In this document: piece after piece, positions 1 through 8,487 of the stretch
How the letters are laid out: each line of letters starts with the position of its first letter
Position numbering within the stretch: the stretch's first letter is position 1
Virus record (IMG/VR): IMGVR_UViG_2675903650_000007
Coordinates: 1-8,487 of that record
DNA from: a virus
Lineage: Duplodnaviria; Heunggongvirae; Uroviricota; Caudoviricetes
DNA: 8,487 nt
Strand: one strand, 5' to 3'
Position numbers and translations under genes: made by a program
Notes under the pieces: generated by a model
What the model saw: only the letters and a program-made list of their open reading frames with translations
Told to the model about the DNA's origin: nothing
Databases searched by the model: none

Positions 1-8
1 ACGCCATA

Positions 9-32
9 TCACTCTCCTTTGATGCGAATGCC
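9..32. repeat. 24-bp direct repeat, copy A (3' junction of Ea22-like paralog 2)
   Basis: TCACTCTCCTTTGATGCGAATGCC is identical at 9-32 and 852-875. On the minus strand it encodes GIRIKGE, the stop codon and the SD of the next gene. Confidence 0.85.
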
Positions 33-530
33 TGTTGCAATGCTGTTTATGATGCTGTCAGTGCATGGGGTAGAAAGCTGGGCATCTCCAGCAATTTTCA
101 TGACCTCAACATCTGCATATCGAATACCGAGGTGTATCAGACCGGCTATGCCTGACTTAAGTCGAACATTTTCCATAAACAGATCTTTTTCCCGCTGTTT
201 AGCGGCTTCCAACTCCATCGACAATTTTTCCAACTGCTCTTTATGCTTCTTGTATTCCTGATACGCGTGCCAAGACTGACCTTTGCGCACACTATCAGTG
301 ATATCAGCAACCTGCTCCGGTGTTAGCGTGGTCAGTGGCTGTGCTGGAAAAATCATCACCTTCCCGGCATCCCAATCAAAACCCGCCTGAATTGACTGAA
401 CCTCAACTGATGGTGTTGAACCGATGCGACCAGGCGAATGAACAACGATCGTTACATCCATATCGCGACGATGGCTGTGGTTGTTGGACAAAATACGATT
501 CACCAACTCAGAAAATTTGGAAAATTTCAT
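9..530 (-). CDS. Ea22-like family prophage protein, paralog 2 (173 aa from ATG at 528-530; the six-frame ORF extends to 659)
   Basis: Minus-strand ORF. Start chosen at MKFSKF because GAGGGA sits 5 nt upstream and the ATG overlaps the upstream gene's stop (ATGA). The C-terminus ...GIRIKGE* is identical to that of the 249-aa Ea22-like protein at 852..1601, encoded by the same 24-bp DNA. Central coiled-coil-like segment ([32 protein letters not shown]). Family assignment is from memory. Confidence 0.5.
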
Positions 531-850
531 GCTGATCCCTCTTTTTCTCCCCGGATAATTCTGTTGCACACATCCACACACTCGTCGCAGATGAAAACGG
601 CGTCCCCAGCAATTAACTTTTTGACGGCGTACTGGGATTTGTTGCAGAAGCTGCAACAAAGTGTTCGCCTGACTGATAAGGATGGAGCGCCAGATGTCAG
701 CCGCTCCATATCGTTCTTGCGACGCAATATCACACGGCTGAACTCAACCAGTTTCTCCGGGGATATCTCCTCCTCCGTAGCAAGCGCCTCTAATCGTTCG
801 AGTATGTGGAAGGCTTTTTTCTGGGTAATTGCAGAATGCGATGTGGTCAT
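527..850 (-). CDS. Small protein with C-terminal ClpX-type C4 zinc-finger domain (107 aa)
   Basis: Minus-strand ORF. Start at ATG 848-850 with GGAGAG 4 nt upstream, chosen over the in-frame ATG at 892 which has no good SD. The C-terminal segment [35 protein letters not shown] closely resembles the N-terminal zinc-binding domain of ClpX (CSFCGKSQHEVRKLIAG..ICDECVDLCNDII), including all four Cys. Stop overlaps the start of the downstream gene (ATGA). Confidence 0.7.
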
Positions 851-851
851 C

Positions 852-875
852 TCACTCTCCTTTGATGCGAATGCC
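852..875. repeat. 24-bp direct repeat, copy B (3' junction of Ea22-like paralog 1)
   Basis: Same 24-mer as 9-32; flanking sequence diverges on both sides. Confidence 0.85.
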
Positions 876-1601
876 AGCGGCGCGGGAATCATTCCATCGC
901 TTTACTTCTTCACGAATTACGTCAATGCATTCTTTCGAATCCATTAGGTAATCTTCATCAAAAAGACGTTCCTGTTCGTTTTCTATCGCAACAATGATTG
1001 CTTCAACTAACTTTTGTGCCTGAGAACCACTTTCTAACTCTGCAATGCGCTTCTCTGCGGCTTCCAGATTCTCGCGCATATCGTCAACGTACTCGACCAG
1101 AGATCCGCCAGCAGGAATTTCGCATTCCTCGACCAGTTGGAAGTAGATATCAGCTGCGGCCCGTGTGTTGCTATGCCTAGCGTCGCCCATCTCACCTTCA
1201 CGAAGAGCATCGCGTTCGGCGGTAAGATTGGCTATTTTGCTGTCTTTGCCTTCCAGCTCAACGCGCAGCCTCCCAACCGTAAGCGCAATATCCTCGTTCT
1301 CCTGATCGCGGCTTTTGATGTATTGCAGGTTTCTTTCCCGTTCATCCAGCAGTGCCAGCACGGTAGCCGGGTTAGCCTCTGCTATGAATTCAGCGTTTGC
1401 ATAAGCCTGAGCATCTGTTTCAACCAGGCAGTTAACGTGACATTCTGCAATTACGCCACCGGGTTCTCCTTTCCATTTTTGACAAACAAAAACTCCTGTT
1501 AAATTGCCGTGTTGGTTAACAGATGTATGCCCTACGATGTAGCTTCCTTTAGTTGCTTTCTCTGCCTTTTCACGCAGTGCCTGATAGTTAATCTCGCTCA
1601 C
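852..1601 (-). CDS. ead/Ea22-like family prophage protein, paralog 1 (249 aa)
   Basis: Minus-strand ORF with GTG start at 1599-1601 overlapping the upstream stop (GTGA) and GGAGG 7 nt upstream. N-terminus [19 protein letters not shown].., acidic coiled-coil middle, C-terminal ..GIRIKGE* shared with 9..530. Family assignment is from memory of E. coli prophage annotations. Confidence 0.6.
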
Positions 1602-1822
1602 TCTTCATCCTCCAAGTCGGCAACGGCGTCCATCACATCAGAACCGCGAATAACCTCAAAAGCACGGCAGGCCATTTGAAATACCAGTTGCTCTTGCGGG
1701 TGAGGAGACTCCCAATATTTGAAGCCTGGGCGATGCGTGTACCCCATCATTGAATAAAAATCACCAGCAAGCTTAATCGCGGCATCGACAAGCTCTCTGT
1801 TAGTCATTCTTTTTCCGCTCAC
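1598..1822 (-). CDS. Hypothetical small prophage protein (74 aa, acidic C-terminus)
   Basis: Minus-strand ORF. GTG start at 1820-1822 overlaps the upstream stop (GTGA) and has GGAGG 6 nt upstream. An alternative ATG start at 1805-1807 would give 69 aa. No recognised domain. Confidence 0.5.
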   Translation of the reverse strand: MSGKRMTNRELVDAAIKLAGDFYSMMGYTHRPGFKYWESPHPQEQLVFQMACRAFEVIRGSDVMDAVADLEDEE

Positions 1823-2250
1823 TGGTTGCCTCCTTTGCGAAGCTGGGCAGCAAAGTCAACTAACCACTCAGTCATTTCAACCTTCCCTACCAGGTCTGAA
1901 CCAGGGTACATACAGCAATCACTCTGCGCCGCTTTGAAATCCTTATACTCATATTCTTGGGCCACCAGATTTTTTGCAGCTTCTATAGCAGCATCCACCC
2001 CCTGCGCCCGGACTTCAGCCAGGAAAGCATCAGTGGCTGGCATATTTCCTGTTGCCTTCATTGCCTCCAAAATAACCAGAACGCCATCTCGCCCAATCTC
2101 CTCGCAGATAACCTCGGTGCTGTCGCCAACAACATCGCAAAATGCCTGAACTGCTTTACGAGCCAGCGCATCTTCCGCCCTGTGAAACGCCTCGCGGTTG
2201 AAATTTTCATATCCCGTCATTGGACCGGCAATATAAACTCTCACCCTCAC
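1819..2250 (-). CDS. Hypothetical protein with nucleoside 2-deoxyribosyltransferase-like (DUF4406-type) N-terminal motif (143 aa)
   Basis: Minus-strand ORF. GTG start at 2248-2250 overlaps the upstream stop (GTGA) and has AGGAGG 7 nt upstream. The N-terminus VYIAGPMTGYENFNREAF matches the K-IYIAGPMTG motif of DUF4406 / deoxyribosyltransferase-like phage proteins, but the remainder is longer and did not match my recollection of that family. Confidence 0.55.
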   Translation of the reverse strand: MRVRVYIAGPMTGYENFNREAFHRAEDALARKAVQAFCDVVGDSTEVICEEIGRDGVLVILEAMKATGNMPATDAFLAEVRAQGVDAAIEAAKNLVAQEYEYKDFKAAQSDCCMYPGSDLVGKVEMTEWLVDFAAQLRKGGNQ

Positions 2251-2639
2251 TCCATCACCTCCTGAAAGTTTCCCCGATAGAACGCCAGCACACGCTGCAT
2301 AACTTCGCTCCTCCTGCTCTCACGACAAATTATGTTCTGCCGTCTGTTGTAACGACGTATTTCTCCGTCAGGTAACTTTCGAATCAGTGTCGGGTCAGCA
2401 GCCTTCTCCGGTGTCTTACGCCATACGCGATACGCCTGCTCTGATGGAAATACCCCGCAACCAGAGAGCCAGACATCACCACTGGCCGCAAGCGCACCAG
2501 ATAAACGACGAATAGCGGTCTTACTGACACCCGTTTTATCTGCCAGTTGTCGAAAAGTTTCTCGTCCGCTCAGGCGCACGAATTCCACAATGCGCGCCTT
2601 CACTTCTTCCCGCTCTTCTGGTGTAAATACTTTTGCCAT
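2247..2639 (-). CDS. Hypothetical prophage protein (130 aa)
   Basis: Minus-strand ORF. ATG at 2637-2639 with GGAGG 5 nt upstream; the ORF track's TTG at 2654 is rejected. Basic, possibly nucleic-acid-binding (..KTGVSKTAIRRL.. resembles an HTH). Stop overlaps the next start. Confidence 0.55.
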   Translation of the reverse strand: MAKVFTPEEREEVKARIVEFVRLSGRETFRQLADKTGVSKTAIRRLSGALAASGDVWLSGCGVFPSEQAYRVWRKTPEKAADPTLIRKLPDGEIRRYNRRQNIICRESRRSEVMQRVLAFYRGNFQEVME

Positions 2640-2654
2640 AAGCGCCTCCGGCAA

Positions 2655-3380
2655 TCACTTTTCCGACACAATACGACCGGATGAATCGACAATCTGTCGA
2701 ACAATATCCCGGTGCTTGTTCAGCTCCCGCAGCGCGGCGCAGACTCGCTCCCACTTCTGAACCTGACCTTTTGCCCGGCGCAGCTCGCGGTTAGCCACAT
2801 GCAGCGATGGTAAAATCAGACCATCCGGATGTTTTCTGGTGAACGACGGCTGTGACTGCACTGTGACCGCCACACTTTCCGTTTTTATTTCTTCCTGTGT
2901 TTCTGCTTCCCGGACAGGTAACGCAACACCTGCTGGCTGAGGAAAGGCTTTACCATCGGTTTCCGCTACGGATGCAGCTTCCGGCTCTGCCGGTAAATCA
3001 GCGCCCGGTATGCAGTAACGAAATTTACCGCCCTGATTCACGCGAATCAGACGCCCTTTGCTGATTGCCATGGCCAGCGATGAATTCGCCCGGCGGGAGG
3101 TAATCCCGAACATCAGTGCCAGCTCATCCGCCGTTTGTGGGCCATGTTGTTCAATCGCCTCAGTCAACATTTGCGCTGTCACTTTCGGTACCGGTGACAC
3201 CGGTTCACTTTCACCAGCCTGAATCAGCCACCACATCGAACCCTTGTTATCCGCTTCACCGCGGCGCTTCAGTTTCCACAGTTCGTTGACCGCATCTTCA
3301 CGGCTGATTCCAAGGCGGGCCGCCACTACCTGTGAAGAGGCTCTTTTCAGTGCTTTCAGTGCGTCAAATACGGTTTCCAT
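2655..3380 (-). CDS. Hypothetical prophage protein with two tandem winged-helix-like segments (241 aa)
   Basis: Minus-strand ORF. ATG at 3378-3380 with GGAGG upstream. Two similar segments (..[25 protein letters not shown].. and ..[28 protein letters not shown]..) suggest an internal duplication of a small DNA-binding module. Sits immediately after the helicase-loader gene, where lambdoid phages carry accessory nin/ren-type genes. Confidence 0.6.
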
Positions 3381-3409
3381 TAAAATTTCCTCCGGATAAA
3401 AATTACTTC

Positions 3410-4150
3410 TCAGTTCCTGTGCTGGCTGACGTTCGGACGCCAGCTCTCCCAGTTAAACGTCACCCAGCGACCACCGTTCATGGACATGCGGTCCATTACC
3501 CGCTCGCCGAGAAGTGTATTCATCGCTGCATGATTAAGATTTGTCAGCATCCCCACACTGAGTAACGATGCCGTTCTACGGTCAACAATCTGATTCAGCG
3601 TGACCTGCTCATTACGCGTATCCCGTTGCATGCCAATTTCATCCAGTACCAGCAGGTCAACGCCACACAATCCCTGCAAAAATTTTTCGCCCGAGTTTTT
3701 GTTGTCGTAGCTGCCATGTAACGCTAGCATCACATCCGCCACTGTTATCACAATCACACTGCGACCTTTCGCCAGAAGGTGGTTGCCAATAGCCGCCGCC
3801 AGGTGGTTTTTTCCTGTGCCAGGCCTGCCACTGAAAACAAAATTCGTACAGCCGCCTTCCAGCTCTGCCGCAATGGATTTCGCCTGACTCAGGGCATGGC
3901 GCTGACCATCGTTCTGCACCCGGTAGTTACCGAACGTACACTTCCGGTGAAGCGGCTGGATACCGGAACGGTTAATGATTTTTTCAACCCGCGTCTGATG
4001 ATTCAGACGATTAACCTCCTCGCTTCGCTTACGCCCTTCAGCAAGCTGCCATTCCCGCCACTCCGCCACCGTACGGTACGGAGGGATTGCATCCTGCGGC
4101 ACAAATCTGCTGACTCTTGCCAGAACACCACCTGACGTAATGTTTTTCAT
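3410..4150 (-). CDS. DnaC-like replicative helicase loader (AAA+ ATPase, IstB/DnaC family; 246 aa)
   Basis: Walker [16 protein letters not shown] and Walker B LLVLDEIG motifs in the arrangement typical of DnaC and the Rac YdaV-type loader. ATG at 4148-4150, 6 nt after the stop of the initiator gene. Confidence 0.9.
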
Positions 4151-4156
4151 GATGCG

Positions 4157-5110
4157 CTACCCCCTGAACCCCGGCGGAATTTCGGTATCCGGTTCAGAAA
4201 TATGATTCACGCAACGCTGCGCGGGCGAACGCCCCAGGCGAATTACCAGTTCATCCCATTTTTCCCGGAGTTTTGCCGGACTCATGATGTTTTTTACCCA
4301 GAACGAATCCCGTTGAACACGCCCAAACATTTCACAAATCTGTCGGTGACTACGTCCATCCAGCATACGCATCATGCGCACATCATTCGCCCAGGTCGTC
4401 CAGTTAGGCTCTCTGGGGCGTGATACCTCCCCATCATCACTGGCGGCCTGTTCATACAACGCAACAACCCGTCCCCAGATCCACTGTGCACACGTCAAAT
4501 CCTCCCGGGTTCCCCACTGTCGCTTCGGTACATTCCAAGTATGCGCATCCGGGTGTTTCTCCAGAAATCGCTCAACTGGTGATGATTGTTTTTCGTCCGG
4601 CAGTGAAACGTCTGGACAAGAAGATCTTTTATCTGACGGATCAGGTTTTAATACTGACGGATCGGGGTCAATCATCGCCCCCCTAATCCGCAGTTTTTTA
4701 TCAACAGTTGATCCATCAACATTTGACGGGCCAACCGTTGAGGGGGCAATATTTGACGGGTCATTTTTTGCCGGGCTAATTTTTCTTTTTGGTTTATATG
4801 CCTCACGCGCCGCCGCTGCAGCTGCTTCAAGTTTTTCCACATTAAGCCGATAGATATTGCTTACGTTACGCCCACCGACCTTACGCTCTTCCTTCGTCAG
4901 CCAGCCCTCTTTCGCCAGTTCTGCAATAGCAGATTTAACGGTGGATTCACTTCTTGCACCGATCTGACGCCGGATAGTTTCAATGGCAGGCCATGACACG
5001 CCCTCGTCATTGCTGTAGTCTGCAAGACGGGCCATAACTGCCACCCTGGATAAGATCATGCCGGTGAAGGCGCACCCTTCCCAGACAAGACCATGAAGCT
5101 TGCTGCTCAT
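4157..5110 (-). CDS. Replication initiator / replisome organizer, O-like (317 aa from ATG 5108-5110)
   Basis: Minus-strand ORF directly upstream of the DnaC-like gene. N-terminal winged-helix-like domain, Ala-rich and Pro/Asp/Ser-rich linker, C-terminal domain. The linker DNA contains an iteron cluster and AT-rich tract, as lambda ori sits inside O. The ORF track's GTG at 5125 is rejected in favour of the ATG with GGGGG 4 nt upstream. Confidence 0.8.
   Translation of the reverse strand: MSSKLHGLVWEGCAFTGMILSRVAVMARLADYSNDEGVSWPAIETIRRQIGARSESTVKSAIAELAKEGWLTKEERKVGGRNVSNIYRLNVEKLEAAAAAAREAYKPKRKISPAKNDPSNIAPSTVGPSNVDGSTVDKKLRIRGAMIDPDPSVLKPDPSDKRSSCPDVSLPDEKQSSPVERFLEKHPDAHTWNVPKRQWGTREDLTCAQWIWGRVVALYEQAASDDGEVSRPREPNWTTWANDVRMMRMLDGRSHRQICEMFGRVQRDSFWVKNIMSPAKLREKWDELVIRLGRSPAQRCVNHISEPDTEIPPGFRG
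4634..4800. repeat. Putative origin of replication: iteron cluster plus AT-rich tract inside the O-like gene
   Basis: Direct repeats TGACGGATC (4634-4642, 4655-4663), TGACGGGCC (4724-4732), TGACGGGTC (4754-4762), a degenerate TGAGGGGG (4739-4746) and an inverted near-copy GATCCATCA (4710-4718). Immediately followed by AT-rich tcattttttgccgggctaatttttctttttggtttatat (4763-4800). Confidence 0.6.
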
Positions 5111-5132
5111 AAAACCCCCGAACACCGTGCTT

Positions 5133-5558
5133 TTAGTGCATCACCACAGCATTCCCTGCCGGGCCGCCGCGATTTATCTGGTCATACAAAACGACCGCTG
5201 ACGCAACAAAATCGTCGACATCCTTCACCAGCCGATCCCGCCGTTCGACAATCTCCCGGTAATACTCAGAACTGTGACTGCGCATACGGGCCACCAGCAA
5301 AGGCGGCATCGCCTTTTCGATCGCCGGTAACAGCGCCTGAATTTTTTCAACAGCATCAGGCGTATCCTTCTCCACCCAGCGGAAAATTTTCTGGGTATTA
5401 CGGGCCAGGGCTTCCGGATGGCTGTCGTCGTACAGTTCCGGGAACGTCATCCCAAGTTCGAAATAAGTCCGGGCTATTTCAGCTGCAGGCACTTTCTCAC
5501 CATCAGGATATGCCCAGGCATTCATCGCCATGCGGATGTGTTCATGTTTGATTTTCAT
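5133..5558 (-). CDS. YdaT-like protein (Rac-prophage YdaT family) in the cII position (141 aa)
   Basis: Minus-strand ORF immediately downstream of the cro-like gene, start overlapping its stop (ATGA at 5555-5558). The N-terminus MKIKHEHI.. matches my recollection of E. coli Rac YdaT. It does not resemble lambda CII. Confidence 0.65.
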   Translation of the reverse strand: MKIKHEHIRMAMNAWAYPDGEKVPAAEIARTYFELGMTFPELYDDSHPEALARNTQKIFRWVEKDTPDAVEKIQALLPAIEKAMPPLLVARMRSHSSEYYREIVERRDRLVKDVDDFVASAVVLYDQINRGGPAGNAVVMH

Positions 5559-5818
5559 GAATCAACTCCCAGCGCGGGTTGTGTGTTAGCCTGATAGTCA
5601 ACAGGTATGCCATCGGTTGGGTTGGGGTAAGTACTGCTATCAATCTCGTGCGGGGTCACTACCCACCCTGTTGCTTCACACCAGCGTAAAACTTTCCCCC
5701 CCGTAAGTTTCGCCCGTCCAGTAATAACATGGCTTACCATCCCTTGGGTTACCCCAACAATTTCAGCAAAATCTTTCTGGGTTATACGGGAATGATGCAA
5801 ATATTCTCCAAGATTCAT
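5555..5818 (-). CDS. Cro-like / YdaS-family HTH regulator (87 aa)
   Basis: First gene of the minus-strand operon, divergent from the repressor gene. HTH-like segment ITQKDFAEIVGVTQGMVSHVITGRAKLT. RBS GAGGTG 4 nt before the ATG at 5816-5818. Confidence 0.7.
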   Translation of the reverse strand: MNLGEYLHHSRITQKDFAEIVGVTQGMVSHVITGRAKLTGGKVLRWCEATGWVVTPHEIDSSTYPNPTDGIPVDYQANTQPALGVDS

Positions 5819-5847
5819 TGTTCACCTCATGTTATGTGACCATGAAT

Positions 5848-5890
5848 ATTAATAGCATTGTTATTTTTAAAAGTAAATAGCACTGCTATT
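5848..5890. promoter_or_regulatory. OR-like operator pair and divergent promoter region (PR-like on minus strand)
   Basis: Two 15-bp palindromes 25 bp apart: AATAGCATTGTTATT (5851-5865) and AATAGCACTGCTATT (5876-5890). On the minus strand a near-consensus -10 TATTAAT (plus coordinates 5848-5854) and -35 TTTACT (5872-5877) with a 17-bp spacer overlap the two operators and point into the cro-like gene. A plus-strand repressor promoter is expected between 5885 and 5920 but cannot be placed confidently. Confidence 0.65.
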
Positions 5891-5925
5891 TCAAAGAGAT
5901 TAATAATCTTATTAGAATTGAAGGT

Positions 5926-6426
5926 ATGAAAAGAAAACCCCTGTCAGAGATCGACCTGCAAGCCGCCCAGAGACTGAAAGAAATCTGGACGACGAAAAAA
6001 ACTCAACTTGGGTTAACCCAAGAGCGTGCGGCAGAAATTCTGGGTTTTTCGACACAAGGGGCAGTAAGCCATTATCTAAATGGTCAGACACCTTTAAATC
6101 TAGAGGCTGTTATCAAGTTCGCTGGGTTGCTACAAGTTCCGCCTGAGTCAATTAGACCAGATATGGCAGACTTGTTACGAATTGTAAGGATGTACCCCCA
6201 AGAACTGCAGCAGGATAATGTTGTCGCTTTACCCGCAGAGATGGAACAATCGGAAAACGAACTTCCGTTTAATATAGAACCTATAGAGCGAGATTTGATC
6301 CAGACGTTCAGGGCTTTCCCAAAAGAAGACAAAGAGAAAATGCTTAAGGAAATGAAGGAGAAAAAAGAATCAATTGAAGAAACCGTTGCGCGGTGGCTAG
6401 AGGCGCAAAAAGGTCTTCGCGCCTAA
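5926..6426 (+). CDS. Prophage repressor, XRE-family HTH, no S24 peptidase domain (DicA/RacR/PaaR2-like; 166 aa)
   Basis: Divergent from the cro-like gene across an operator-containing intergenic region. HTH motif LTQERAAEILGFSTQGAVSHYLNGQ. The C-terminus is Lys/Glu-rich helical and lacks a LexA/CI-type autocleavage domain. Followed after 17 nt by the antitoxin gene, so the three genes are probably co-transcribed. Confidence 0.8.
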   Translation: MKRKPLSEIDLQAAQRLKEIWTTKKTQLGLTQERAAEILGFSTQGAVSHYLNGQTPLNLEAVIKFAGLLQVPPESIRPDMADLLRIVRMYPQELQQDNVVALPAEMEQSENELPFNIEPIERDLIQTFRAFPKEDKEKMLKEMKEKKESIEETVARWLEAQKGLRA

Positions 6427-6443
6427 TCTGAGGAGGTTAGAAC

Positions 6444-6635
6444 ATGAGTACAGTCCTTTCCCCGATAATTTCAGAATTTGAAACAATCGAACAAGAAAAC
6501 AGCTATAACGAATGGTTACGCACCAAAGTGGCAGCAAGCCTCGCAGACCCCCGTCCTGCAATTCCGCATGACGAAGTAATGGCTGAAATGGAAAACCTTA
6601 TTGCGCAAATAGCTTCGACGAACAGGAGTGAGTAA
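6444..6635 (+). CDS. Small antitoxin (PaaA2-like) of a ParE-type toxin-antitoxin pair (63 aa)
   Basis: Strong RBS GAGGAGG 6 nt upstream of the ATG. Small acidic protein (..SEFETIEQENSYNEWLR..) whose stop overlaps the toxin start (TAATG at 6633-6637). The sequence resembles my recollection of PaaA2 from E. coli O157 prophages. Confidence 0.75.
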   Translation: MSTVLSPIISEFETIEQENSYNEWLRTKVAASLADPRPAIPHDEVMAEMENLIAQIASTNRSE

Positions 6636-6925
6636 TGCTGCCCATTTTATGGCTACCTTCTGCGCGTGATGATTTGCGTCAGATCGTAGCCTATATTGCC
6701 AAGGAAAACCCTCCCGCTGCACGTAGACTAAAAATACGCATTGAAACATCAGTTTTGTCACTTACTGAACACCCTTACCTGTATCCACCAAGCGAAAGAG
6801 CTCTAGGCCTTCGTGAGATAGTGACCCATCCTAACTACATAATACTTTACCGAGTAACAGCATCTAACATCGAGATCGTAAATGTAGTTCACTCACGAAG
6901 GCAGTATCCAAACAAAAGCTGTTAA
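6635..6925 (+). CDS. parE: ParE/RelE-superfamily toxin (ParE-like; 96 aa)
   Basis: Size and motif pattern typical of ParE toxins (LP-LW..A..DL..I..YIA.-NP.AA..L...I......L...P.-G......L-LRE.V-...YI--YRV....IEI-.V-HSRR). Translationally coupled to the preceding antitoxin gene. Confidence 0.8.
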   Translation: MLPILWLPSARDDLRQIVAYIAKENPPAARRLKIRIETSVLSLTEHPYLYPPSERALGLREIVTHPNYIILYRVTASNIEIVNVVHSRRQYPNKSC

Positions 6926-6939
6926 TCATTCCTACCAAC

Positions 6940-6964
6940 AACCACCTTCGGGTGGTTTTTTTTT
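6940..6964 (+). terminator. Rho-independent terminator of the repressor-antitoxin-toxin operon
   Basis: Perfect hairpin AACCACC-TTCG-GGTGGTT (stem 6940-6946 / 6951-6957, GNRA-like loop) followed by a T-run through 6964, 15 nt after the toxin stop codon. Confidence 0.8.
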
Positions 6965-6980
6965 CTTACCTCCAAAAAAC

Positions 6981-7022
6981 AATAGCATTACTATTTACAG
7001 AATAAAATAGCAGTGCTATTGT
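6981..7022 (+). promoter_or_regulatory. OL-like operator pair with PL-like promoter
   Basis: Second pair of the same 15-bp palindrome, again 25 bp apart: AATAGCATTACTATT (6981-6995) and AATAGCAGTGCTATT (7006-7020). Candidate -35 TTTACA (6994-6999) and -10 TATTGT (7017-7022) with a 17-bp spacer overlap both operators and point rightward. Confidence 0.6.
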
Positions 7023-7199
7023 TTATTCATCACCCACCCTCCCCACAGAACGCAGGGCAATACTTCGAGTTACCAGGCAGTGGTCAGGGGGTAAGTAGCC
7101 AGCCCGAGGCGTAAGAACATGACGGCAGGGTTCAACTTTAATAACTATGCAGCAGGTTTTTGTTCCGCTACCCCGGCGTTAAGGGGAAATGAGGTCAGC

Positions 7200-7352
7200 A
7201 TGGATACTATCGATCTTGGCAACAGCGAATCTCTGGTATGTGGCGTGTTCCCCAACCAGGACGGTACGTTTACCGCGATGACGTATACCAGAAGCAAAAC
7301 GTTTAAAACTGAAGCTGGCGCGCGTCGCTGGTTAACCAGAAACACTGACTGA
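7200..7352 (+). CDS. YdaF/YdfA-like small prophage protein (50 aa)
   Basis: RBS GAGG 5 nt before the ATG at 7200. MDTIDLGNSESLVCGVFPNQDGTFTAMTYTRSKTFKTEAGARRWLTRNTD resembles the ~51-aa first gene of the Rac/Qin PL-type operons as I recall it. The ORF track's longer version from ATG 7119 has no SD. Confidence 0.6.
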   Translation: MDTIDLGNSESLVCGVFPNQDGTFTAMTYTRSKTFKTEAGARRWLTRNTD

Positions 7353-7363
7353 TGAGGTTGACG

Positions 7364-7702
7364 ATGGAATTTAAAGATTTACCTCCTTCAATCCAGGAGA
7401 TTGCAGCACACACACTTCGTCATCGTCTGAACGAACTTGAATTGGAATCGGTAACAAAAAAAGACACTGATAATATGGCTCGTAATGTGCGCGATGCGTT
7501 TACTGGGCTGTTTTCAGATACAGCTTTAAATATCCATGGCACAGAGGATACAGCAAAACAATTTGCAGAAAAAGAAGTGGAAGATCCCAGTTCAAAGAGC
7601 CAGAAACAGCCAAACAACCATGAAATTAACGAACTGCTTCTGGCAACAGGCTTCATAAATATTAACGAATATGAACGCCGTAAAAAAATGTTATCTGATT
7701 AA
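7364..7702 (+). CDS. Hypothetical acidic prophage protein (112 aa)
   Basis: ATG at 7364 with GAGG 5 nt upstream; an in-frame ATG at 7352 overlaps the preceding stop and would add 4 aa. No recognised domain. The 3' end overlaps the convergent gene 7691..7885 by 12 bp. Confidence 0.55.
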   Translation: MEFKDLPPSIQEIAAHTLRHRLNELELESVTKKDTDNMARNVRDAFTGLFSDTALNIHGTEDTAKQFAEKEVEDPSSKSQKQPNNHEINELLLATGFININEYERRKKMLSD

Positions 7703-7885
7703 TCCATCAAGATATCTTTTTAGCATCAGCGTTTCTACGTTATTAAAACCATCAGATTTTAACATAGCTTCGATTCGCTGATTTAAATTGCCAACTAACT
7801 GTTGATACTGAGTAGATGGAAGCATGTGTACCAGCTCCTTGAGAACACAATAACATGCACCAAGTTTTAACTCCTGCTCTGACAT
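7691..7885 (-). CDS. Hypothetical small protein, convergent to the PL-like operon (64 aa)
   Basis: Minus-strand ORF with start ATG at 7883-7885 and GGAGGA 4 nt upstream. MSEQELKLGACYCVLKELVHML.. has no recognised family. The longer ORF-track version (88 aa, to 7957) lacks an SD. Confidence 0.45.
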   Translation of the reverse strand: MSEQELKLGACYCVLKELVHMLPSTQYQQLVGNLNQRIEAMLKSDGFNNVETLMLKRYLDGLIR

Positions 7886-8227
7886 TTTATCCTCCATTGA
7901 GGTTACTGGTTGAGAATGGAGACCTCTCGTGACAGCGTGTGGTCGTGCGCCGGACACGGATAAGAATCCGGCACTGACAGTTTACTGAAAGGATATTTCC
8001 CTGAAAAGTCAGACCATAACGCGAAAGCGCACGGCGAGGTAGCTGGTTCATAGATAGCCTGTCGTTAAATTTTCGTCGACCGTGCGCTTCCGGTTGTGGC
8101 AATCCGCGAAATGGCGCGGCGGTAAGTATGGCTGGGGTTTCCTCCATTGCTCCAGAAAATGCACCGGGTTGTCAGGTTGACCATACGCTTAAGTGACAAC
8201 CCCGCTACAACGCCCTCTGTTATCAAT

Positions 8228-8285
8228 TTTCTGGTGACATTTGGCGGTATCAGTTTTACTCCGTGACTGCTCTGCCGCCCTTTTT
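8228..8285 (+). ncRNA. dicF: DicF-like small regulatory RNA
   Basis: tttctggtgacatttggcggtatcagttttactccgtgactgctctgccgcccttttt matches the ~53-nt DicF sRNA of the E. coli Qin prophage almost base for base, from memory with about one difference, including the GC-rich 3' stem and U-tract. Confidence 0.8.
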
Positions 8286-8290
8286 AAAGT

Positions 8291-8442
8291 GAATTTTGTG
8301 ATGCGGTGAATGCGGCTCAGCGCACGCGGAACAGTTAAAACAAGCGGTCTTTTACGGGCGTAACGGGAATGCTCTGTATCCGGCGTTAATTGTTAACTGG
8401 TTAACGTCACCTGGAGGCACCAGGCACCGCATCACAAAATTC
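8291..8442. repeat. 18-bp perfect inverted repeat enclosing 116 nt, immediately 3' of DicF
   Basis: GAATTTTGTGATGCGGTG (8291-8308) is the exact reverse complement of CACCGCATCACAAAATTC (8425-8442). On a DicF read-through transcript this would form an 18-bp dsRNA stem. Confidence 0.7.
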
Positions 8443-8487
8443 ATTGTTGAGGACGCGATTGTCACGAACGGTGCAATAGTGATCCAC

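Follow-up and report, generated by a model that had tools for sequence, protein, structure and literature searches.

Putative operators of a lambda-type immunity switch that also carries a toxin-antitoxin pair in an Escherichia coli prophage

The window analysed here, an 8,487-nucleotide stretch of DNA (positions 1 to 8,487 of the viral record IMGVR_UViG_2675903650_000007), contains four copies of a 15-bp palindrome. In all likelihood these serve as operators for the bistable, lambda-type switch that governs immunity of a lambdoid prophage of E. coli. Comparison with homologous loci makes it very probable that the four palindromes bind repressor and Cro in a prophage switch with toxin-antitoxin genes as an additional component. 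On this comparative basis the sites are probably read by the repressor (5926–6426), and probably by the Cro-like protein (5555–5818) as well. Although the element is of an ordinary kind, its operator sequence is previously undescribed. What the analysis establishes directly concerns sequence and homology, the statistics of the sites, their conserved positions, and covariation; from these we infer binding, promoter activity, activation, cooperativity, and looping.

The Palindromic Motif and Its Copies in the Window

Searching both strands with the pattern AATAGCANTGCTATT returns matches at four places only, even when as many as three mismatches are allowed. The chance expectation from shuffled sequences at this threshold is 0.34 matches, and none of 200 shuffles reaches four. 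An earlier note on this DNA had placed AATAGCA-N-TGCTATT at 5851, 5876, 6981, and 7006 and nowhere else, which is borne out for the strict pattern with no more than one mismatch, and the 25-bp spacing it described is found start to start in both pairs. The imperfect halves are likewise as reported there, TGTTATT and TACTATT (the latter given as ACTATT). The two 40-bp blocks that hold the site pairs form a direct repeat (80%) and also an inverted repeat (78%).

Genes and Promoters of the Locus

The repressor and cro-like genes are divergent and 107 bp apart, and the region between them holds the sites at 5851 and 5876 together with a weak site at 5899. On one side of this intergenic region lie the cro-like gene, ydaT, and O-like and DnaC-like genes; on the other side, past the repressor operon, follow a terminator, the second site pair, a ydfA-like gene, and DicF.

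The repressor (5926–6426, plus strand) has 166 amino acids, matches only HTH_3 in Pfam, and is laid out as an N-terminal head, a disordered linker, and a PaaR-type helical C-terminal domain (a helical hairpin). Its N-terminal domain is lambda-CI-like, with five helices, an N-terminal arm (MKRKPL), and the recognition helix TQGAVSHYLN; residues 2–82 align with the lambda repressor in the PDB (1lmb; E 1.6e-9), and Foldseek comparison of an AF2 model with lambda-type heads gives TM scores of 0.81–0.94 (target length) and an rmsd of 1.1–2.8 Å at 34–37% identity. There is no Pfam match to Peptidase_S24. Over its last 64 residues the repressor shares 56% identity (E 2e-21) with the regulator of an E. 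coli O157:H7 paaA-parE module, whereas the N-terminal DNA-binding domains of the two proteins are unrelated. A PDB search with the repressor finds no solved structure covering the C-terminal domain, and a Pfam match to Tad5 in that domain (E 0.008, below the cut-off) was treated as noise.

The Cro-like protein (5555–5818, minus strand) is a YdaS-type helix-turn-helix protein of 87 amino acids that matches Pfam HTH_3 and carries the recognition helix TQGMVSHVITG. It is 33% identical to the helix-turn-helix region of the repressor (E 2e-6), the two recognition helices being nearly identical (TQGMVSH and TQGAVSH), and 37% identical to the O157:H7 YdaS-like protein; a PDB search with it gives nothing significant. 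Its neighbor on the same strand (5133–5558) encodes YdaT, a CII-like regulator (Pfam YdaT_toxin, 7.8e-10), 84% identical to O157:H7 YdaT. At the end of the cro-like gene (5548–5565) lies a YdaT-type site, TTGATTTTCATGAATCAA, which fits TTGATT-N6-AATCAA without mismatch and agrees in motif and position with the footprinted site of CP-933P (PMC9986795). Downstream of the repressor on the plus strand are a PaaA-type antitoxin (6444–6635; Pfam PaaA2, 2.9e-22; PDB 3zbe, 1.7e-22) and a ParE-type toxin (6635–6925; Pfam ParE_toxin, 4e-18). The first gene past the PL-like promoter, also on the plus strand (7200–7352), belongs to DUF1391 (ydfA-like) according to Pfam and to the RefSeq annotation of an identical prophage, and the DicF small RNA (8229–8280, plus strand; Rfam RF00039, 77 bits, E 3.8e-16) is located in the operon under OL/PL.

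The promoters are predictions, made with a consensus scan for the PRM-like and PL-like promoters and by eye for the PR-like promoter; with that distinction the previously noted overlap of the palindromes with -35 and -10 elements holds for all three. The PR-like promoter of the cro-like/ydaT operon (5849–5877, minus strand) consists of a -35 TTTACT (5877–5872), a 17-nt spacer, TGc, and a -10 TATTAA (5854–5849). It was not returned by the promoter scan because its -10 hexamer lacks the conserved final T; relatives carry TTGACA/TAATAT at these positions, and the same hexamers are found at the corresponding places of PydaS in Rac, a promoter mapped by experiment (PMC9638921). The PRM-like promoter of the repressor operon (5890–5918, plus strand) reads TTCAAA-17-TAGAAT. 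Since the repressor ATG at 5926 comes only 7 nt after this -10, the repressor mRNA is probably leaderless. Almost all relatives whose repressor has the TQGAVSHYLN helix show a gap of 6–7 nt from the -10 to the ATG, and leaderless transcripts have been mapped experimentally for paaR2 (PMC8630535) and racR (PMC9638921). The PL-like promoter (6994–7022, plus strand) reads TTTACA(6994)-17-TATTGT, with a TG upstream of the -10. An intrinsic terminator of the repressor-paaA-parE operon (6940–6966, plus strand; predicted hairpin of -10.4 kcal/mol, z -3.1, followed by U9) directly precedes the second site pair.

Conservation and Covariation among Relatives

Related repressors (approximately 45–65% identical) are encoded by prophages of Salmonella, Citrobacter, Yersinia, Rouxiella, Providencia, Proteus, and Arsenophonus. 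The scan of related prophages proposed in the earlier note thus finds the motif at corresponding places across several enterobacterial genera: about 73–75 and 49–50 bp before the repressor ATG, with a second pair just past the repressor operon. These positions are kept regardless of the cargo carried between repressor and OL, be it PaaA/ParE, HigBA, a HipA-like gene, or none, although the loci share ancestry and the conserved position is partly inheritance. A weight matrix trained solely on sites of distant relatives, and so on none of those in the window, ranks the four window sites first to fourth and position 5899–5913 fifth among 8473 positions, with some circularity in that the training sites were the best matches within anchored windows. 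The proposal that the palindromes are repressor and/or Cro-like sites draws its support from this comparison rather than from binding data.

In 18 distinct versions from E. coli the outer AATAG/CTATT never varies, and invariant outer bases with a drifting center fit two helix-turn-helix heads reading outer half-sites. Recognition helices also covary across lineages. Repressors with GAVSH are paired with Cro-like proteins with QG(M/Y)VSH, GAVSQ with QGF(V/I)SQ, and A(S/T)VS with QGYVSR, and in this last group half-site positions 5–6 are altered (ATTAAT, ATTAGT..CGAAT). The sites of one Salmonella relative (L002) are much weaker, at 13–15 bits, despite an identical recognition helix; the strict 15-mer has a single match there, with three mismatches, and the sites keep AATA..TATT and differ inside.

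The Individual Operators

O_R1 (5851–5865; AATAGCATTGTTATT; one mismatch) has the top matrix score in the window, 22.5 bits, and shares bases with both the -10 and the extended -10 in the PR-like promoter that serves the cro-like gene. Its outer AATAG/TTATT is invariant in the 18 E. coli versions, and its register, -73 to -75 from the repressor ATG, is the same in all relatives. O_R2 (5876–5890; AATAGCACTGCTATT; no mismatch, 20.9 bits) overlaps the PR-like -35 and adjoins the PRM-like -35, with its center at about -43 relative to the repressor ATG. The five outer bases on either side of O_R2 are invariant among the E. coli versions and all five central columns are polymorphic. O_L2 (6981–6995; AATAGCATTACTATT; one mismatch, 20.5 bits) overlaps the -35 TTTACA of the PL-like promoter, while O_L1 (7006–7020; AATAGCAGTGCTATT; no mismatch, 20.9 bits) overlaps its extended -10, TGcTATTGT. 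The earlier suggestion that imperfect halves reflect graded affinity is not supported by these values: the deviant bases occupy positions 10 and 11, two columns that are free to vary within the family, the supposedly degenerate site at 5851 scores highest, and no two of the four sites differ by more than 2 bits.

A weak third site, O_R3, is proposed at 5899–5913 (ATTAATAATCTTATT; matrix rank 5 of 8473, 11.7 bits), in the interval from the -35 to the -10 of the repressor promoter and at a distance of 23 bp from O_R2. It is the weak one of the set and does not appear in the earlier note. With the family matrix the next independent position reaches 6.1, and 13 of 5000 shuffled versions of the intergenic region attain the candidate's score within 3 bp on either side of the register. 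Clearer sites occupy this register in relatives, ATTAGCAATACTATT in Citrobacter and ATTAGCAATCTTATT in the 78–80% E. coli group. A third OR site, weaker and situated on the promoter of the repressor itself, is thus very probable, and OL has only two, so that the description of two sites per operator region stands for OL and gives way at OR to a probable three. The conservation of the O_R3 candidate could stem from the promoter it overlaps. At OL no matrix match occurs 23–25 bp upstream of O_L2, where the T tract of the terminator fills the place that an O_L3 would take, and relatives also have two sites; a two-site OL with 24–26 bp spacing is found in 14 of 15 representative lineages.

Alternative Readings of the Sites

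Both proteins share the helix motif TQG-VSH, so either one alone could account for the motif, and the third site has a distinct left end in most lineages (ATTA, not AATA) that could mark a different preference. A reading in which the sites serve the Cro-like protein alone or the repressor alone is nevertheless improbable, since across lineages changes in the two helices accompany one another as well as changes in the half-site, and a bistable switch requires both proteins acting at OR. In CP-933P, moreover, PaaR2 and YdaS protect overlapping intergenic regions and both repress PR, PRM, and PL (PMC8630535).

Two further readings dispense with the repressor and the Cro-like protein altogether. 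A mere promoter duplication, in which PR and PL descend from one ancestor and the repeats have no operator function, would explain why the 40-bp blocks are 80% identical and why both carry TTTAC-N17-TGCTATT. It is very improbable, since each unit is a dyad whose invariant outer bases and drifting center are not accounted for by promoter function; part of O_R2 falls outside any hexamer, the half-site changes in step with the recognition helix, and the dyads hold their position in lineages with different hexamers (TTGACA/TAATAT versus TTTACT/TATTAA). Classical antitoxins bind palindromes at their own promoter, and the sites here flank the operon containing the toxin-antitoxin pair, as autoregulatory sites of a PaaA-ParE complex in the manner of classical type II modules might. 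This complex as the binder is hardly credible and was rejected: the same site pairs persist in relatives without toxin-antitoxin genes (L004, L008, L019) or with HigBA or HipA-like cargo, and the PaaA-type antitoxin matches only the PaaA2 family, described as having no DNA-binding domain (PMC8630535).

A Proposed Switch

In the two-protein switch favored here, repressor dimers would read the outer bases of the 15-bp site, A(A/T)TAG-N5-CTA(A/T)T. The promoter driving the cro-like/ydaT/replication operon would have its -10 covered by O_R1 and its -35 by O_R2, which lies some 43 bp ahead of the probably leaderless repressor start; with this placement, occupancy of O_R1 and O_R2 would shut PR, and O_R2 may stimulate PRM. 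The weak O_R3, inside PRM, would allow negative autoregulation at high repressor levels and would offer a target for the Cro-like protein, which, given its nearly identical recognition helix, is expected on the same sites and would thereby close a double-negative loop. At the promoter driving the ydfA-dicF-dicB operon, O_L2 would cover the -35 and O_L1 the -10. The PaaR-type C-terminal domain, of a family whose regulator is reported to form octamers, is expected to give cooperativity between sites 23–25 bp apart, and perhaps mediates OL-OR looping across 1.13 kb.

Comparison with Known Switches

Many features of the locus parallel phage lambda. The repressor heads are homologous, with a basic N-terminal arm and a five-helix fold, and the repressor of the window has acidic residues at the positions aligned with E34 and D38, residues with a recognized role in lambda. 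The three OR dyads have center spacings of 25 and 23 bp, compared with 24 and 23 in lambda; as in lambda, O_R1 and O_R2 lie on PR, with O_R2 preceding the PRM start by about 43 bp, O_R3 falls within PRM, PL has an operator cluster of its own, and repressor and Cro share helix residues. Unlike lambda CI, the repressor has no S24 autocleavage domain, so RecA-driven induction would not be expected. The sites are 15 bp with the half-site AATAG, whereas those of lambda are 17 bp (TATCACCGC); OL has two sites instead of three, the role of CII would be taken by the unrelated YdaT, and the cargo after the repressor is PaaA/ParE where lambda has rexAB.

As far as its sequence allows it to be placed, the locus is a heteroimmune version of the published paaR2-paaA2-parE2/ydaS-ydaT switch of CP-933P from E. 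coli O157:H7 (Jurenas et al., 2021, PMC8630535; for YdaT, PMC9986795). Shared features include the gene order, which runs from ydaT and a ydaS-like gene to a divergent regulator, paaA, and parE, with a PL-like promoter then preceding ydfA-like genes and dicB; a regulator without an S24 peptidase; operator clusters at OR and again past the toxin-antitoxin pair; and a perfect TTGATT-N6-AATCAA YdaT site at the end of the cro-like gene. The repressor mRNA, leaderless in CP-933P, probably is so in the window too. The order regulator-PaaA-ParE, divergent from ydaS-ydaT, recurs in the O157:H7 locus compared here (L111). The O157:H7 module compared is a paralogous one, with a regulator other than PaaR2 itself, and it was rejected as a stand-in for CP-933P in view of its different operators and an antitoxin not identical to PaaA2 in the PDB. 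The window differs from both in its recognition elements. Its lambda-CI-like repressor head is unrelated to that of the compared O157:H7 regulator, and its 15-bp AATAGCA-N-TGCTATT operators differ from the AAAAACTGT dyads of that locus and from the 18-bp palindromes of PaaR2, with half-site GTTTAGTAA (PMC8630535). Site numbers differ as well, with three at OR (counting the weak candidate) and two at OL in the window, whereas CP-933P has four inverted repeats in OR and three OL operators.

The racR/ydaS-ydaT region of Rac in E. coli K-12 (PMC9638921) likewise has divergent repressor and ydaS-ydaT genes, three proposed intergenic operators, and a leaderless repressor transcript, and operator ends overlap the PydaS hexamers as in the window. 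The Rac layout of ATTAGGCGACGCCTAA followed 26 bp on by AATAGGCTGTGCCTAAT resembles the window family. RacR was rejected as a homologue of the repressor (BLASTP E 3.7); its consensus, (T/A)TAGGC-n3-GCCTA(T/A), holds TAG in another register than AATAGCA-N-TGCTATT, and Rac, unlike the window, has no toxin-antitoxin cargo.

The DNA-binding head also has a counterpart in Stx2-converting phages of the Lyz12581Vzw type (Oslovirus; NC_049917). The head of their CI is 54% identical and has the helix TQGAVSQLLN, the divergent cro-like gene encodes the helix SQGFVSGVITG, and the OR sites (AATAGTCTAGCTATT, ATTAGC.., ..GCTAAT) are of the same family as those of the window. What sets this CI apart is a C-terminal domain of the S24 peptidase kind (240 aa, LexA family in the annotation), and its gene has a Shine-Dalgarno leader and no toxin-antitoxin cargo. 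We know of no study of the operators of Lyz12581Vzw-type phages.

Significance for Prophage Immunity

Three kinds of tail occur behind such heads: the S24 peptidase of Stx2-converting phages, the PaaR-type oligomerization hairpin of the window, and a whole second helix-turn-helix regulator in forms of 240–255 amino acids. Speculatively, and on balance rather unlikely, one head and operator code, A(A/T)TAG-N5-CTA(A/T)T with three OR and two OL sites, may be common to repressors with all three tails, and a resident non-cleavable repressor could restrain an Stx2 phage. Were the specificities to overlap, such a repressor could check an incoming or co-resident SOS-inducible Stx2 phage with the same operator class; the induction pathway and immunity would then be uncoupled. 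On this reading the hypervariable center of O_R2 could be where affinity is adjusted.

Through control of the DicF/dicB operon by the OL pair, repressor occupancy would decide the expression of host cell-division inhibitors. The authors of the CP-933P study raised the idea that the toxin-antitoxin pair protects the immunity region from being replaced through recombination (PMC8630535), on which the window locus, with PaaA/ParE of the same family and a different head, cro-like gene, and operators, bears. The current understanding of how such switches work is unchanged. A search of a cultured phage collection with the whole region covers 7–12% of the query, and no sequenced phage in that collection has this immunity region. 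The proposed operator code and site map provide a concrete description of an immunity type of E. coli and Enterobacterales prophages, one that approximately 72 of the 5426 complete genomes of E. coli possess, strains of O104:H4 and O145:H28 among them.

Probable Operator Pairs in the Immunity Region

A lambdoid E. coli prophage has its immunity region in the window, which matches a prophage adjoining rspB in strain DETEC-S792 at 100% identity. A survey of 5426 complete E. coli genomes finds at least 80% of a 1.65-kb region in 72; this region is absent from every phage in the cultured-phage collection. Genes on the minus strand include a DnaC-like gene (3410-4150), an O-like gene (4157-5125), ydaT (5133-5558) and, in the Cro position, a gene for an 87-aa HTH protein (5555-5818). 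Across a 107-bp intergenic region (5819-5925), the plus strand encodes a 166-aa HTH repressor (5926-6426), a PaaA-type antitoxin (6444-6635; Pfam PaaA2, 2.9e-22; PDB 3zbe, 1.7e-22) and a ParE toxin (6635-6925), followed by an intrinsic terminator (6940-6966, plus strand, -10.4 kcal/mol), a second site pair (6981-7020), a DUF1391/ydfA-like gene (7200-7352) and the DicF RNA (8229-8280; Rfam, 77 bits). In the identical prophage dicB is next after DicF. With both downstream of the PL-like promoter, OL would control host cell-division inhibitors (DicA has this role in Qin).

A search of both strands of the window for AATAGCANTGCTATT, allowing up to three mismatches, yields only four matches: O_R1 (5851-5865, one mismatch), O_R2 (5876-5890, perfect), O_L2 (6981-6995, one mismatch) and O_L1 (7006-7020, perfect). 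Dinucleotide-preserving shuffles contain a mean of 0.34 matches and never reach four, and the earlier description of four palindromes forming two pairs is accurate. Spacing within each pair is 25 bp, and aligning the two 40-bp blocks gives 80% identity in direct and 78% in inverted orientation. Judged from sequence, the sites are genuine and are well accounted for as the probable operators of a switch of the lambda, CP-933P and Rac type, with no counterpart to the operator sequence itself found in the literature searched.

Conservation of the Sites across Relatives

Repressor homologs and approximately 110 loci encoding them were compared. Every lineage with a TQGAVS(H/Q)YLN helix carries the motif at two distances upstream of the repressor ATG, 73-75 and 49-50 bp; the set spans E. 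coli, Salmonella, Citrobacter, Rouxiella, Yersinia, Providencia, Proteus, and Arsenophonus, and repressor identity goes down to about 45%. Of 15 representative lineages, 14 repeat the motif as a pair, 24-26 bp apart, directly past the repressor operon, the exception being a Salmonella locus (L002) with one downstream match at the threshold used. Loci without cargo genes carry this pair 58-90 bp past the stop codon, and those with cargo carry it past PaaA/ParE, HigBA, or a HipA-like gene plus DUF3037. The first site of OL pairs is followed by GAC(A), completing a -35, and the second extends into a -10. The cargo slot from repressor stop to OL (6427-6980 in the window; L002 4466-5462, L005 4736-6928 and L004 4463-4525 in relatives) holds PaaA/ParE in the window; one Salmonella relative has HigB/HigA there and another has a HipA-like kinase with DUF3037, and the relatives from Rouxiella, Yersinia, Providencia, and Proteus have an empty slot.

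With a weight matrix trained only on the OR sites of the more distant relatives (below about 70% identity), the four window sites take ranks 1-4 among 8473 positions, scoring 20.5-22.5 bits. The earlier note had read degenerate right halves as a sign of graded affinity. This is not borne out: the deviations are T at position 11 (+0.65, with C at +0.95) and A at position 10, and the site at 5851 scores highest, with all four falling within 2 bits. Among 18 distinct E. coli OR versions, otherwise nearly identical, sites 1 and 2 have invariant outer AATAG and CTATT, whereas all five columns of the O_R2 centre (5881-5885) are polymorphic (CACTG, CATCG, CATCA, CATTA, CGATG, TGATG and others). The element predicted to be read is thus A(A/T)TAG-N5-CTA(A/T)T, and conservation does not extend to the perfect palindrome found in the window. 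Variability of the O_R2 centre may reflect either lack of constraint or tuning of affinity.

Half-sites also vary with the recognition helices. Repressors with ..GAVSHYLN accompany Cro-like QG(M/Y)VSH(V/I) and half-site AATA(G/A)C; ..GAVSQYLN accompanies QGF(V/I)SQV and A(T/A)TAGCA; and with ..A(S/T)VS(H/Q)YLN and QGYVSR(V/I), half-site positions 5-6 change, giving ATTAAT/ATTAAC, or ATTAGT with CGAAT opposite. The S24-bearing CI of Stx2 phage Lyz12581Vzw, whose head is 54% identical to that of the window repressor, has the helix TQGAVSQLLN and OR sites AATAGTCTAGCTATT, ATTAGCTTACCTGAT, and ATTTGTGTTGCTAAT. This covariation, although correlative, fits the expectation for sites read by both proteins, and binding by the repressor or the Cro-like protein alone appears unlikely. 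A duplicated promoter with no operator role explains neither the dyad pattern of invariant outer bases around a drifting centre nor the covariation with the helices. Binding by the toxin-antitoxin complex, whose genes lie between the two pairs, is excluded in practice because relatives that lack these genes still have the sites and PaaA carries no domain for binding DNA. A distant relative, a Pseudohongiella MAG with helix SQGAVSHYLN, has three sites (L029 3929-3989; AGTACCGCCGGTATT, AATACCGCCAGTCTT, and ATTACCGCCAGTAAT) sharing ACCGCCAG, which is also the core of lambda operators, a hint that the operator families have a shared ancestry.

A Probable Third OR Site

Two sites per region, instead of the three of lambda, had been proposed; this holds for OL, where no third site is found and its position is taken by the T tract of the terminator, but probably not for OR. 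In an anchored alignment, relatives have a third OR site 23 bp past the second (20 bp in the Yersinia group), for example ATTAGCAATACTATT (Citrobacter, 18.8 bits), ATTAGCAATCTTATT (the 78-80% E. coli group), ATTAGTAAAACTATT, and ATTAGCAATACAAAT. The window counterpart, ATTAATAATCTTATT at 5899-5913 (O_R3), has five mismatches to the strict pattern and was therefore missed by both the first reading and the three-mismatch search. It is fifth in the matrix ranking of the window at 11.7 bits, with the next independent position at 6.1; when the intergenic region is shuffled 5000 times, its score is attained within 3 bp of register in only 13 cases. O_R3 lies between the -35 (TTCAAA, 5890-5895) and -10 (TAGAAT, 5913-5918) of the repressor promoter. 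It is graded only as a probable third operator, since its conservation could partly reflect the promoter it overlaps. A shorter perfect palindrome, TAATAA-TC-TTATTA, occupies 5901-5914 in the same region, with AATA and TATT 4 bp apart rather than 7.

Comparison with Known Switches

The CP-933P switch of E. coli O157:H7 has the same layout as the window. There, both PaaR2 and YdaS give footprints in the 97-bp intergenic region and repress PR, PRM, and a PL past the toxin-antitoxin genes (PMC8630535). PaaR2 operators, unlike those of the window, are 18-bp palindromes with half-site GTTTAGTAA (PMC8630535). A paralogous O157:H7 module (L111) carries dyads AAAAACTGT/ACAGTTTTT at OR and OL alike. 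Its YdaT is 84% identical to that of the window, and its regulator is 56% identical to the window repressor over the C-terminal 64 residues, with unrelated N-terminal domains. With the toxin-antitoxin pair, YdaT and repressor tail retained and the head, cro-like gene, and operators exchanged, the window represents a heteroimmune member of this group of prophages. CP-933P YdaT binds TTGATT-N6-AATCAA at the ydaS end (PMC9986795), and a perfect repeat of this type, TTGATTTTCATGAATCAA, lies at 5548-5565, at the cro-like/ydaT gene junction; a PRE-like, YdaT-dependent route to repressor expression is thus probably conserved. The racR-ydaS intergenic region of Rac in E. coli K-12 (L113 2743-2865) has almost the layout of the window family (..AAATATTAGGCGACGCCTAA.., and 26 bp on ..GTCAATAGGCTGTGCCTAAT), with no detectable similarity between RacR and the window repressor.

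Predicted Promoters and Proposed Mechanism

The PR-like promoter on the minus strand consists of -35 TTTACT (5877-5872), a 17-nt spacer and TGcTATTAA (5854-5849), and the PL-like promoter of TTTACA (6994), 17 nt and TGcTATTGT (7022). O_R1 and O_L1 lie over the -10 regions, O_R2 and O_L2 over the -35 regions. Relatives and Rac PydaS have TTGACA and TAATAT in the places of the PR-like hexamers, and the window TTTACT/TATTAA is clearly weaker; this E. coli lineage may have an attenuated lytic promoter.

The PRM-like -10 ends 7 nt ahead of the ATG at 5926, and in almost every relative carrying the TQGAVSHYLN helix (L002, L004, L005 and others) the distance is 6-7 nt, a conserved spacing that makes a leaderless repressor mRNA likely. 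The Providencia, Proteus, and Arsenophonus loci lack such a -10 hexamer, and the S24-bearing Stx2-phage homolog (L112) has a GGAGG leader instead. Leaderless mRNAs have been mapped for paaR2 (PMC8630535) and racR (PMC9638921); PaaR2 itself is octameric and lacks a cleavage domain (PMC8630535).

The O_R2 centre is approximately 43 bp upstream of the repressor start, the position of lambda OR2 relative to PRM. In the proposed mechanism PR and PL would be repressed via their operators, PRM possibly stimulated from O_R2, and O_R3 would serve autorepression and the action of the Cro-like protein. The PaaR-type tail would confer cooperativity, possibly with OL-OR looping, and SOS induction through self-cleavage would not be expected.

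The Repressor and Cro-like Protein

The repressor head shows homology to the N-terminal domain of lambda CI (PDB 1lmb, E = 1.6e-9, residues 2-82), with a basic N-terminal arm in both (MKRKPL versus KKKPL in lambda). Its acidic residues E33 and E37 correspond in the alignment to lambda E34 and D38, which function in PRM activation. An AlphaFold model (mean pLDDT 77, 85-93 over most of the five-helix head) can be superposed on structures of the lambda CI N-terminal domain (TM 0.81-0.94, rmsd 1.1-2.8 Å); residues 93-112 are predicted to be disordered and 119-165 to form a helical hairpin. Pfam finds no S24 peptidase in the repressor. The Cro-like protein is 33% identical to the repressor HTH (E = 2e-6), and the recognition helices are nearly alike (TQGMVSHVITG versus TQGAVSHYLNG in the repressor). 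The same DNA-binding head is found with three tails: the PaaR-type hairpin of the window repressor; a whole PaaR1-like protein, which brings its own HTH to give two-HTH repressors of 240-255 aa (P0013-P0023; L005 4001-4735, L007 4001-4723); and an S24 peptidase, in Lyz12581Vzw (L112 1795-2514) and the homolog P0033.
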